Source: an uncultured Actinomycetes bacterium (GTDB lineage: Bacteria; Actinomycetota; Thermoleophilia; RBG-16-64-13). Taken from it: a stretch of 64,000 nt of DNA. The stretch lies in the NCBI GenBank assembly GCA_963829545.1, contig CAWHIX010000008.1, forward strand, positions 28,274-92,273. Reading direction: 5' to 3'. Under the pieces are notes generated by a model that did no database searches, had not been told where the DNA came from, and saw nothing but the letters and a program-made list of their open reading frames with translations. A program made the translations under genes and the position numbers. The stretch's first letter is position 1. Each line of letters opens with the position of its first letter. Positions 8,995 through 12,119 of this stretch are shown in pieces.

Positions 8995-10140
8995 CTACTC
9001 GGTCACGACCCGGTTCCCCCTTACGAACTTGCCCATGACCATCGCGTACACGATGGCCCCCAAGAACACGCTGACGTAGTTGAGTACGGCTATGGCTGTG
9101 TACTGAAAGAAGAACGCATATACGTACACTCCCAGGACCTGGGAGCCGACGAACACTCAGACAAACCCCCACTGCGCCGGGGCGAAGGGGCTCTTTGCGA
9201 AGTGGCTCCTGAAGTAATCCCTGATGAGATAGATAGCGCCAAGAGCCCATACAACCGCAACGCCGTACGAGGCAGTGATCAGCAGTGACTCCCATCCGTG
9301 CAGTCCAGAGGCGAGGTGAGGCTGCATGTACTCTGCTATTCGGTACGCACTCAGACCGTAGAGGCAGGCAATAGGGACGATTAAGAAGAACGCCGGCAGT
9401 ATCGCGGTGGCGGGCAGCTTGGCGGCTCGCACGTGTGCGTAGACCAGATACGCCACCTTATACACCAGCAGCACCGAACCAACGACCAGTGTGAACAGGG
9501 TAGCGACGGCAGCTGTGGTACGGATCACGTCGTCGCTGGCCATCGAGACGATGCCGGAGCCCGTCAAGCTGACCAGACCAAAGGCGAAGGCGTCGAGAAG
9601 CCAGACGAAGTTGAACTCCCTTCTCTGCACGCCTCTGGAGAACCAGGTCCTACCAAACGTCACTTGGAAGAAGAGCAGCGCTGACAAGAGGATGCCGAAG
9701 ACTATCAATGACGGCACCATCAACGCCTGCATGTTCGAGGACACCTGCGGGACGAAGAAGCCGAAAGGGGCCCAGAAGACGTTGACCGTCATCGATAGAG
9801 AGGCGACGATGGCGAATATGCCCGTGTTCTGATTCTGATGCGGGTTGTTCTTGAAGCCGCCGTAGGCTCCCGGCTCCCCAAGCCACGTGGCCAGACGATA
9901 GAGGAAGTATCCTGTGAGCACAAAGTTGAGGACGGTGAACGCCAACATCACGGCGACCAGGGGCGCGTAGAGGGCAATCTGCCCCCCTGTCAACGTCCCC
10001 CACGAAATATCAGACGACGTGATCAACCCCTCACCATGGGGGATAGCGAATTGGAGGTAGTTGAACGCCATCAGGGCAACGCCGCCTGCTGCCAACGACG
10101 ACTGGAACAACAGCGGGTGGAACTTGATACTGAGCTTCAC
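8995..10140 (-). CDS. 10-TM membrane selenoprotein (TsoY-like), 381 aa with Sec at codon 328
   Basis: GTG start with GGGAG RBS. In-frame TGA at 9159-9157 in ...PAQWGFV-U-VFVGSQVLG, followed by 53 more codons that complete two hydrophobic helices up to TAG at 8997-8995. SECIS-like hairpin 11 nt after the UGA. Family name is from recollection, not a search. Confidence 0.82.
9129..9145 (-). promoter_or_regulatory. Bacterial SECIS-like hairpin of the membrane selenoprotein
   Basis: CUCCCA-GGUCC-UGGGAG starting 11 nt after the UGA. The apical CAGGUC resembles the E. coli fdhF SECIS loop. Confidence 0.75.
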
Positions 10141-10157
10141 GGCTGCTCCCCGTACAC

Positions 10158-10202
10158 ATTGCAATATGGCCAGATTGCGATATTATAGCGCACGATAGCG
10201 CA
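10158..10202. promoter_or_regulatory. Divergent promoter region with repeated operator-like boxes
   Basis: TTGCAA-16nt-TATTAT on + (10159-10186); ATTGC(A/G)ATAT at 10158 and 10174; ATAGCGCA at 10185 and 10195. Confidence 0.55.
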
Positions 10203-10227
10203 AGGCGAACCAAGACAAGGAGGCCCG

Positions 10228-10582
10228 ATGGCATCTGTGCTTTTCGTGCTCAATGACGCTCCCTACGGCGCCGAGCGCTCCTACAACGCTCTTCGACACG
10301 CGATGGCCGTGTCGAAACAGCCAGGATACCGAACTCAGACTGTTTCTGACGGCCGATGCCACCGCATGTGCCCTGGCCGGCCAGAAGACCCCCGAGGGCT
10401 ACTATTCCATCGAACGGATGCTCAAGGGTCTTCTGGTGAAGAAGGCCATGGTGGCCTTATGAGGCACCTGCATGGATGCCCGTGGTTTGGCATCCCTACC
10501 CTTGGTGGAAGGCGCTCAGCGGGGCTCCATGGATCTTCTCGCCCAATGGACGCTCGAGGCCGACAAGGTGATCGTCTACTAG
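10228..10582 (+). CDS. DsrE/YchN-family selenoprotein with UxxC motif (117 aa after removing a 1-nt insertion at ~10325)
   Basis: AAGGAGG RBS; N.APYG.ERSYNALR, LFLTADA..CA..GQKTPEGYY. In-frame TGA at 10460-10462 in VAL-U-GTCMDARG, continuing to W...ADKVIVY*, the normal YchN C-terminus. Confidence 0.88.
10474..10495 (+). promoter_or_regulatory. Bacterial SECIS-like hairpin of the DsrE gene
   Basis: GGAUGCC-CGUGGUUU-GGCAUCC: perfect 7-bp stem starting 11 nt after the UGA, with GGU in the loop. Confidence 0.75.
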
Positions 10583-10606
10583 TCATGCTGCCTGAGAGAG
10601 GCGCTG

Positions 10607-10951
10607 ATGGCCGATAGGATCGACCCCACCATCCTCGAATTGCACGCGAGGGTGTGCAAAACCATGGCCCATCCCCTGCGCTTGGCTCTGCTCAACGCTC
10701 TCCGCGAGGGCGAACGGAGCGTGGGCGATTTGGCCGAGGAAATCGGCGCGACCCAGCCCCTTGTCTCGCAGCATCTGGCACTACTCCGCAACCAGGGACT
10801 CCTCCGCAATCGGCGGAGCGGCAACGAGGTCTACTACAGCATCGCCTACCCGAAGATGGTCCAGGCTTGTGATCTGTTGCGGGAGGTGCTTTTCGAGCAC
10901 CTGCGGGCACAGGAGGAGTTGACCCGGCGCGCCGAACAACGCACGCCCTGA
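10607..10951 (+). CDS. ArsR/SmtB family transcriptional regulator
   Basis: CKTMAHPLRL, E.SVGDLAE, VSQHLALLR, R.GNEVYYSI; Cys17 and Cys88. Confidence 0.92.
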   Translation: MADRIDPTILELHARVCKTMAHPLRLALLNALREGERSVGDLAEEIGATQPLVSQHLALLRNQGLLRNRRSGNEVYYSIAYPKMVQACDLLREVLFEHLRAQEELTRRAEQRTP

Positions 10952-10964
10952 TGAAAGGCTACGA

Positions 10965-12119
10965 GTGAGCCACACGTCTATCGGCGAGCGCCCGATATAC
11001 CTGGATTACAACGCGACCACGCCGGTTCTCCCCGAGGTGCTGGACGCCATGCTGCCCTACCTGCGGGAGCGTTTCGGGAACCCCTCCAGTCTCCACCCCT
11101 ACGGGCAGGAGGGGCGGCGTGGGGTGGACCGGGCGCGCGAGCAGGTGGCTGATCTGCTCGGATGCAGTTCTGACGAGATCATCTTCACCTCCGGGGGAAC
11201 AGAGTCGAACAATCTGGCCATTTTCGGGACCACCCGGGACACGGGCGGCCCCGGCCACGTGGTCACCTCGGTGATCGAACACCCTGCGGTCCTGCACCCA
11301 TGCCAGATGCTGGGACGTCAGGGCCACAAGGTGACGAGGCTCGGAGTCGACCGTCTGGGCGTTGTCGACGTTGGGCAGGCTCGGGAAGCGCTTGACGACC
11401 TGCCGCTTCTCCTCACGGTCATGCATGCCAACAACGAGACGGGGACGATACAGCCGATCAAGAAACTGTCGGCGCTTGCCAGGGAGCGAGGCTCGCTGGT
11501 GCACACAGACGCCGCCCAGTCGGTCGGGAAGATTCCGGTCGATGTTGAGGACCTCGGCGTCGATCTTCTTTCCATTGCCGGGCACAAGCTCTACGCACCG
11601 AAGGGAGTCGGCGCCCTGTACGTGCGCCGCGGCGCACCTCTGCTCCCGGTGCTGGTCGGAGCAGGCCACGAACGCGGTCGTCGCCCAGGCACCGAGAACG
11701 TGGCGTCGATCGTGGGGTTGGGGGCGGCCTGCGCGTTGGCGAGAAACACGCTGCATGCGGAGTCGGCTCGGGTTCTCGCGCTGCGCGAGGGGCTGTGGGG
11801 CCTGCTGGGTGAGGGAGTGCCTGGCTTGAAACTCAACGGGCATCCGACCGATCGTCTGCCGAATACTTTGAACGTGGTGTTTCCCGGCGTACGGAGCAGC
11901 AACCTCCTGAAGGCCGCGGCTGGGGTGGCAGCCTCGGCCGGTTCTGCCTGCCACGAAGGGGGTGAGACGCCGTCGCCGGTGCTCGCGGCAACGGGCCTGA
12001 GCGACGACGACGCACTCGGCTCGGTCCGTCTCTCGCTGGGCCGGCTGACGACGGAGGTCGACATCACCACGGCGGCCGGTGGACTCGTTGCAGCATGGCG
12101 GGTTCTCCGGGGCACCTGA
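10965..12119 (+). CDS. NifS/IscS-type cysteine desulfurase (possible selenocysteine lyase)
   Basis: IYLDYNATTP, FGNPSS, FTSGGTESNN, ANNETG, HTDAAQ, GHKLYAPKG, SAGSACH. Confidence 0.93.
   Translation: MSHTSIGERPIYLDYNATTPVLPEVLDAMLPYLRERFGNPSSLHPYGQEGRRGVDRAREQVADLLGCSSDEIIFTSGGTESNNLAIFGTTRDTGGPGHVVTSVIEHPAVLHPCQMLGRQGHKVTRLGVDRLGVVDVGQAREALDDLPLLLTVMHANNETGTIQPIKKLSALARERGSLVHTDAAQSVGKIPVDVEDLGVDLLSIAGHKLYAPKGVGALYVRRGAPLLPVLVGAGHERGRRPGTENVASIVGLGAACALARNTLHAESARVLALREGLWGLLGEGVPGLKLNGHPTDRLPNTLNVVFPGVRSSNLLKAAAGVAASAGSACHEGGETPSPVLAATGLSDDDALGSVRLSLGRLTTEVDITTAAGGLVAAWRVLRGT

Follow-up and report, generated by a model that had tools for sequence, protein, structure and literature searches.

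How might a cluster of four genes work when two of its products, one a membrane protein and one a small DsrE-like protein, each seem to contain selenocysteine (Sec)? The question is raised by a locus within a 64,000-nt stretch of DNA (hereafter the window; contig CAWHIX010000008.1 of assembly GCA_963829545.1, positions 28,274 to 92,273) from an uncultured Actinomycetes bacterium of the lineage RBG-16-64-13. Four genes surround a divergent gap of 87 bp (10141-10227), with tsoY on the minus strand and dsrE1, arsR and nifS on the plus strand, and our re-derived coordinates gave the same layout that a preliminary description of this DNA had claimed. As judged from codon alignments and RNA hairpins, tsoY and dsrE1 are both genuine selenoprotein genes, and comparison with other loci identified TsoY and a DsrE-family protein as the stable core of the arrangement. 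We lean, slightly, towards an interpretation in which the locus would encode a relay under ArsR control that connects the membrane with selenophosphate synthesis and passes on a chalcogen, selenium being the likeliest.

The tsoY gene (8995-10140, minus strand) has a GTG start at 10140 that agrees with the MKLS... N-terminus of the closest homologue; the residue numbers used here follow translation P0001, which begins at 10164. Its UGA codon (9157-9159) aligns with Cys in full-length homologues (position U336) and is followed by a conserved VGSQVLGVYV segment. Gene calling shortens the protein at this codon, as had been anticipated: most of the 120 homologues listed end at 322-327 aa, just before the UGA (query cover 83-84%). 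We compared 49 TsoY loci from species-representative genomes of at least six phyla, searching them by tblastn and grouping all their open reading frames (ORFs) in an unbiased clustering. In the 46 loci with cover of the site (three of the 49 are without it), the codon was TGA 43 times, TGT twice and TGC once, and in the neighboring DsrE genes the corresponding codon was TGA in 18 of 23 cases and TGC in the other five. Alternation of UGA and Cys codons, which had been put forward as a check on the Sec assignment, is therefore seen at both sites.

Each UGA is followed by a hairpin resembling a Sec insertion sequence (SECIS), as previously noted, and both stems begin 10-11 nt 3′ of the codon. The tsoY hairpin (9128-9146, minus strand) has 8 bp and the loop GUC, while that of dsrE1, whose UGA is at 10460-10462 on the plus strand, has 7 bp and the loop CGUGGUUU (10474-10495, 11 nt past the UGA). 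A hairpin was taken to pass if it had at least 6 bp and a free energy of -5 kcal/mol or lower. With this threshold the TsoY hairpin passed in all 43 UGA forms (mean -10.7 kcal/mol), every one of which has the consensus GCUCCCAR-GUY-YUGGGRGY, and in none of the three Cys forms (mean -1.9 kcal/mol), where the same peptide is encoded by synonymous codons that disrupt the stem. Over 38 distinct TsoY sequences, 99% of the cells were paired, and the closing pair alternates between A-U and G-C via G-U, which amounts to one compensatory pair. The DsrE hairpin was found in 18 of 18 UGA forms and, with a different fold, in one of five Cys forms (L018 in our numbering of loci); its actinobacterial and Firmicute sequences differ and their register is offset by one base, and both fold. 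Both hairpins have the features of bacterial SECIS elements described in the available part of PMC13188914, including a G in the apical loop. An Rfam scan of 8500-12500, made without a check that Rfam includes a bacterial SECIS model, returned no SECIS or other family at E < 1, the three matches listed having E values of 1.5-7.5. The possibility that the UGA is a true stop followed by a separate downstream gene was ruled out by the alignment with Cys, the conservation downstream of the codon and the hairpins. For annotators, the two codons are recurrent truncation sites to be repaired.

The reading of two selenoproteins had been proposed subject to the presence of Sec machinery in the genome, and all of its components were found there (assembly 92.5% complete): selA, selB and selD score over cut-off, and selA lies beside selB with tRNA-Sec adjoining. 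The selD gene (C8:463792-464718, where C numbers denote contigs of this assembly) itself holds a TGA. We observed the tRNA-Sec gene twice (C6:2748-2844 and C12:3518-3614) and pieces of selB on two contigs, including C6:545-1316, which is probably one region assembled twice at contig ends. About 6.5 kb upstream of selD there is a rhodanese-like match (C8:456924-457229, L063) that the TsoB model hits weakly; with its in-frame TGA, it may represent a further selenoprotein gene near selD. We also checked public sequencing runs, the best of which holds 0.25 of the sampled words, with a cover gap at 9730-10149 that is uninformative. The dsrE1 TGA is bridged by two contigs from independent runs (X16 and X2), both identical to the window, and the tsoY TGA by an X3 contig only, which has six differences at unplaced positions. 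The X16 contig derives from an RNA library and spans 10363-10584, which is no proof of transcription.

The genes surrounding tsoY in other genomes provide a view of its usual partners. Of the 49 loci, 33 have a DsrE-family gene no more than 6 kb from tsoY, and TsoY with a DsrE-family protein is the stable core of the neighborhood; the usual partner is this protein and not the operon behind the TsoY name. A two-Cys ArsR is present in 17 loci and NifS in 14, plus a frame-broken copy in L014, and the combination of DsrE1, two-Cys ArsR and TsoY occurs in 14. The synteny of all four genes that had been suggested does recur across phyla, but as a full set in six loci only, namely L014 and L015 (Actinomycetota), L023-L025 (Clostridia) and L036 (Fusobacteria), where order and orientation vary. 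The occurrence of the four genes together elsewhere in shuffled order argues for functional coupling. We found selD within 6 kb in 13 loci, often in the order selD-dsrE-tsoY, and a divergent LysR gene in 14, for which the best NCBIfam match is a selenium-metabolism LysR (142.9 bits, under the cut-off of 250). These selD and LysR neighbors point to selenium more than to sulfur. Two of the three genomes with a Cys-type TsoY still have selD. Other recurrent neighbors were a CGGC-domain protein (nine loci), a lipoamide-dehydrogenase/MerA-like flavoprotein 5′ of tsoY (five loci) and, in a few loci, an S-adenosylmethionine (SAM) methyltransferase, which matches TehB/ArsM weakly and in Bacillales lies between dsrE and nifS. 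The selenate-respiring Mesobacillus selenatarsenatis SF-1 has two complete LysR-selD-dsrE2-tsoY-dsrE1 loci (L039 and L040) and three selD genes, each with a TGA.

Two types of DsrE protein were distinguished in these loci. Type 1, to which the window protein belongs, has 116-117 aa and the motif [U/C]G[T/S]CMDARG, and was found in 22 loci; type 2 has 106 aa with ACGTC and a later Cys, is always in the Cys form and lies directly 5′ of tsoY in 14 loci. Both types occur in three Bacillales loci. A complex prediction for a Cys-type TsoY with its type-2 DsrE neighbor (both from L052) gave a score of 0.00, which counts neither way. The C-terminal part of the window protein matches PF02635 with 46.9 bits and its L014 orthologue does so with 72.4 bits, and in an NCBIfam search no specific model claimed the small DsrE protein. 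Its Sec presumably stands at the position of the persulfide-carrying Cys of TusD/DsrE (Cys78), going by equal numbering rather than by a residue-level alignment. Along its entire length of 117 aa, the L014 orthologue matches Escherichia coli YchN (PDB 1JX7; E 4e-26), a functionally uncharacterized DsrE/DsrF-like protein. YchN reads C-K-T-C where the protein of the module reads U-G-T-C, its first Cys being replaced by Sec, and it is the gene of the module that is linked to TsoY, ArsR and NifS. The DsrE-like selenoprotein of Zhang and co-workers has the same PF02635 domain and the same UxxC motif (PMC1794560, PMC13188914); the available parts of these sources give no gene neighborhood for it.

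The preliminary description was right about the UGA and the hairpin of dsrE1 but overlooked an extra A at 10323. Because of this base the gene (10228-10582, plus strand) is split over two frames: residues 1-32 are read in phase with 10228, and all later ones in phase with 10253. The window reads CCAGG, whereas six of six aligned relatives, all in frame, have CCGG or an A-less equivalent, and a near-identical environmental contig from run X1 omits precisely base 10323, although with a depth of 2 this contig is weak evidence alone. Other genes of the assembly are frame-broken too. Two NifS/IscS paralogues extend over three frames (C12:50321-51375) and two frames (C8:274867-275533) in tblastn, which suggests that insertion or deletion (indel) errors are frequent in this assembly. 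The DUF169 gene 3′ of tsoY (7942-8853, minus strand; ORF 8055-8192) switches frame near 8190-8215, with the Pfam domain stopping at residue 217 and a true-looking C-terminus (MDGIYHFEESGRGF...) in the other frame, and this is probably another assembly indel. Related metagenome assemblies have the same type of break, in NifS in L014 and in TsoY in L051 and L054. A programmed +1 frameshift in dsrE1 was ruled out, as the extra base is present in none of the six relatives.

Since six relatives and the X1 contig are without the base and other genes are frame-broken, we consider it very probable that the extra A is an assembly error. Alternatively, the frameshift may be real and the locus decayed in this organism, leaving TsoY, ArsR and NifS alone functional. 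The extra A does stand in the assembly and lies outside any homopolymer, the reads consulted come from public runs (at best 0.25 of the sampled words) rather than from the source sample, and the patchy occurrence of TsoY among 60 relatives (none of three in the same genus, nine of 36 in the same family) would fit ongoing loss. However, the rest of dsrE1 is intact, with UGA, hairpin and stop kept and a C-terminal part up to 86% identical to relatives, and together with the further broken genes and the environmental contig without the extra base this makes decay appear quite unlikely to us.

TsoY had already been catalogued as an NCBIfam family before this analysis. The window protein scores 507.5 bits against NF047643 "selenoprotein TsoY", twice the cut-off of 250 (500.7 bits in the genome search), and shares the Sec position of the family. 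The name was reportedly given by Haft and Tolstoy in 2025 (mSystems). In the available part of PMC13188914, TsoY is listed with the motif UxxV and its name is taken from a "three selenoprotein operon"; at the Sec of the window protein the motif is U-V-F-V. Searches of the genome gave no match for TsoA or TsoX and matches only below cut-off for TsoB and TsoC. With no Tso partner over cut-off, the window TsoY lies outside the context behind the family name, and its ArsR neighbor is not TsoR. True TsoR (161-171 bits, cut-off 115) was seen in two of six other ArsR neighbors examined, both in Desulfobacterota.

An AlphaFold2 model of TsoY built with 64 homologues (predicted local distance difference test score, 92.5) has ten long helices, and ten transmembrane (TM) helices were predicted, with Sec336 in TM9 and an invariant Cys267 in TM7. 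Foldseek matched the model to SLAC1/TehA proteins (prob 1.0, TM-score 0.55-0.78). The ten-helix fold is shared with channels of this group (PDB 3M71-3M7C, 7EN0, 8J1E; TM-score up to 0.78), but identity is 10-14%, and the Sec/Cys in TM9 and the invariant Cys in TM7 are TsoY's own. The Pfam SLAC1 model (PF03595) reaches 22.4 bits, under its cut-off of 27.9, and a PDB sequence-profile search with the TsoY alignment gave zero matches. In the structure of TehA, the odd-numbered helices line the pore.

The pairing of a membrane protein with a small carrier bearing a Cys motif is a logic also found in YedE/YedF and YeeE/YeeD, the membrane proteins of which have no homology to TsoY. YeeE/YeeD handle thiosulfate. 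The available part of PMC5322559 describes a CGxC domain of the DsrE kind in YedF and a linkage of YedF to selD. On the YedF model (cut-off 110), the type 1 DsrE protein reaches 15.6 bits and the type 2 protein 24.2 bits, and the best NCBIfam match of type 2, a weak one, is to the YedF C-terminal domain. In the organism's own genome the YedE model had no match, and the YedF model matched below cut-off only and outside the module. YedE scored over cut-off in two of 34 TsoY-bearing genomes; E. coli itself stays below cut-off on this model, no lineage-matched control accompanied the count, and it was not used as evidence.

The regulator encoded by arsR (10607-10951, plus strand) is a generic member of the ArsR/SmtB family (NF033788, 88.6 bits, cut-off 55). 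It has Cys17 and Cys88, and the two-Cys character attributed to it earlier holds well, since all 17 module-type orthologues retain both residues. The idea that it senses reactive sulfur species was not borne out. Its best solved relatives, BigR and SqrR (PDB 3PQJ, 6O8L; E 4.5e-15 and 7e-12), both have two Cys per protomer, but these stand at other alignment positions: where the module protein has C17 and C88, BigR has Leu and Val, and neither residue corresponds to a Cys of SqrR. The protein also remains under the cut-offs of the BigR (63.6 vs 155 bits) and TsoR (51.4 vs 115 bits) models. Two side observations concern related regulators. In tblastn, the alignment of one module-type ArsR (L041:5298-5588) is interrupted by an in-frame stop, and a second ArsR of the organism itself (C6:24259-24561), 44% identical to that of the module, adjoins a TusA/YedF-N-terminal-like ORF (C6:23886-24125) containing a TAG.

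Within the divergent region, an imperfect palindrome at 10158-10183 (an inverted repeat, 87% complementary) is a candidate ArsR operator. A related motif, ATATCGCR-N4-YGCGATAT, recurs 5′ of dsrE in actinobacterial relatives, and in an alignment read by eye the right arm TGCG(A/G)TAT was present in eight of nine sequences. The palindrome overlaps a sigma-70-like promoter of dsrE (TTGCAA at 10159-10164, a 16-nt spacer and TATTAT at 10181-10186; one site vs 0.4 expected), which suggests repression by occlusion, assuming that ArsR binds there. It probably does sit on the palindrome and would be released upon modification of the Cys pair.

The last gene, nifS (10965-12119, plus strand), encodes a NifS/IscS-like class V pyridoxal phosphate-dependent cysteine desulfurase and possible Sec lyase. 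Its class V aminotransferase domain (PF00266) scores 259.5 bits, and the GHK and SAGSAC motifs are present. It stays under equivalog cut-offs (TIGR03402, 440 vs 530.75; IscS, 362 vs 643) and reaches 100.7 bits on the selenocysteine lyase model SclA (NF040779), for which the cut-off is 525. Given the gaps of 24 nt between dsrE1 and arsR and 13 nt between arsR and nifS, the three genes resemble a single operon divergent from tsoY. Further NifS paralogues are encoded elsewhere in the genome, and a TusA/SirA-like ORF (C8:274163-274360) adjoins the NifS/IscS paralogue on C8.

Taken together, these features are compatible with the relay that we slightly favor. TsoY would be an anion channel or transporter of the SLAC1/TehA fold whose helices TM9 and TM7 bear the Sec and the invariant Cys, respectively, the small cytoplasmic protein of the YchN/DsrE fold would offer a Sec-x-x-Cys pair, and the NifS-type enzyme would release sulfur from Cys or selenium from Sec. 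Covalent exchange through Se-Se or Se-S bonds among TsoY, DsrE and NifS may pass on selenium in the form of selenide, perselenide or a species resembling a selenotrisulfide, so that the membrane would be connected with selenophosphate synthesis, and the two-Cys ArsR on the palindrome of the dsrE promoter would let go when its Cys pair is modified. What the relay would carry, whether it would serve uptake or export, which of the proteins touch and what ArsR responds to are inferred. In a bolder version, a pore-lining Sec would capture incoming selenium as an Se-Se or Se-S adduct and hand it to the Sec-x-x-Cys carrier, which would feed SelD directly or via NifS; this would constitute a selenium uptake route for Sec users without YedE/YedF, with ArsR as a new sensor of selenium status. 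We regard this version as doubtful.

Several points weigh against the relay. Function is read here from genes, neighborhoods and a predicted fold alone. The full four-gene set is a minority among the loci (six of 49), and nine of 49 contain none of the partner genes, several of these having a short flank. In the organism itself selD lies outside the module, about 430 kb off on the same contig, and if the dsrE1 frameshift were real the module would be broken. The Cys pair of ArsR matches no characterized sensor among those aligned, and DsrE, NifS and BigR-like ArsR proteins belong to families traditionally associated with sulfur. The last point leads to a reading in which the module handles sulfur, to detoxify or export persulfide or sulfite: NifS would make persulfide, DsrE would carry it, TsoY would export sulfite or polysulfide under a BigR-like ArsR that senses reactive sulfur, and Sec would serve to speed thiol chemistry. 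Among equivalog-type NCBIfam models ArsR indeed matches BigR best, and BigR is also its closest relative with a solved structure; DsrE/TusD and NifS are sulfur-transfer families, and the TDT family, which includes TehA, also has a sulfite exporter. SSU1 is such an exporter. We nevertheless consider the sulfur reading unlikely, as the regulator is far below the BigR cut-off and has its Cys residues elsewhere, the selD and LysR neighborhoods (13-14 loci) have no obvious sulfur reading, and Sec forms account for 43 of 46 TsoY proteins and 18 of 23 DsrE neighbors.

The TehA fold of TsoY may also be taken to indicate metalloid efflux similar to that of TehA/TehB, with selenite, tellurite or arsenite as the toxic ion that frees ArsR. 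TsoY would then export this ion, either unchanged or after reduction or methylation, and reducing chalcogen chemistry would come from DsrE and NifS. ArsR-family control is typical of resistance operons, the methyltransferase of the Bacillales loci and the flavoprotein 5′ of tsoY in five loci would have a place in such a scheme, and some carriers bear names that refer to the respiration of selenate or arsenate, namely Mesobacillus selenatarsenatis (with its two loci), Anaerobacillus arseniciselenatis and Selenihalanaerobacter. These names are anecdotal and without a control, however; the likeness to TehA is one of fold only, given the low identity and the SLAC1 score under cut-off, and placement in selD operons suits assimilation better than efflux. 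On balance we hold efflux to be improbable, and the selenium relay remains the reading towards which we lean.

For selenium-specific uptake and trafficking in bacteria, as distinct from routes through sulfur systems, YedE/YedF are candidates only (PMC5322559). None of the families involved (TsoY, DsrE-like UxxC selenoproteins, ArsR and NifS) is new in itself, and both selenoprotein families have been catalogued. Our literature search found no description of a TsoY-DsrE-ArsR-NifS module, of the two-Cys ArsR subgroup or of the selD linkage, the paper naming TsoY, which may describe its neighborhood, being outside its coverage. As far as the covered literature goes, then, what appears to be new is the regular pairing of TsoY with a YchN/DsrE protein, the ArsR subgroup with two Cys and the linkage to selD. 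The module pairs a selenoprotein of channel fold with one of carrier fold, and recurs in selD operons and beside NifS in several phyla. In cultured carriers, such as Mesobacillus selenatarsenatis and Desulfitobacterium, the question of selenium uptake becomes testable.

No recurrence in other TsoY loci was observed for the genes 3′ of nifS, which in the window (12198-13851) encode a small secreted protein with a weak match to DUF2680, two proteins with a DUF305 and a SHOCT domain, respectively, and then a major facilitator superfamily (MFS) transporter.

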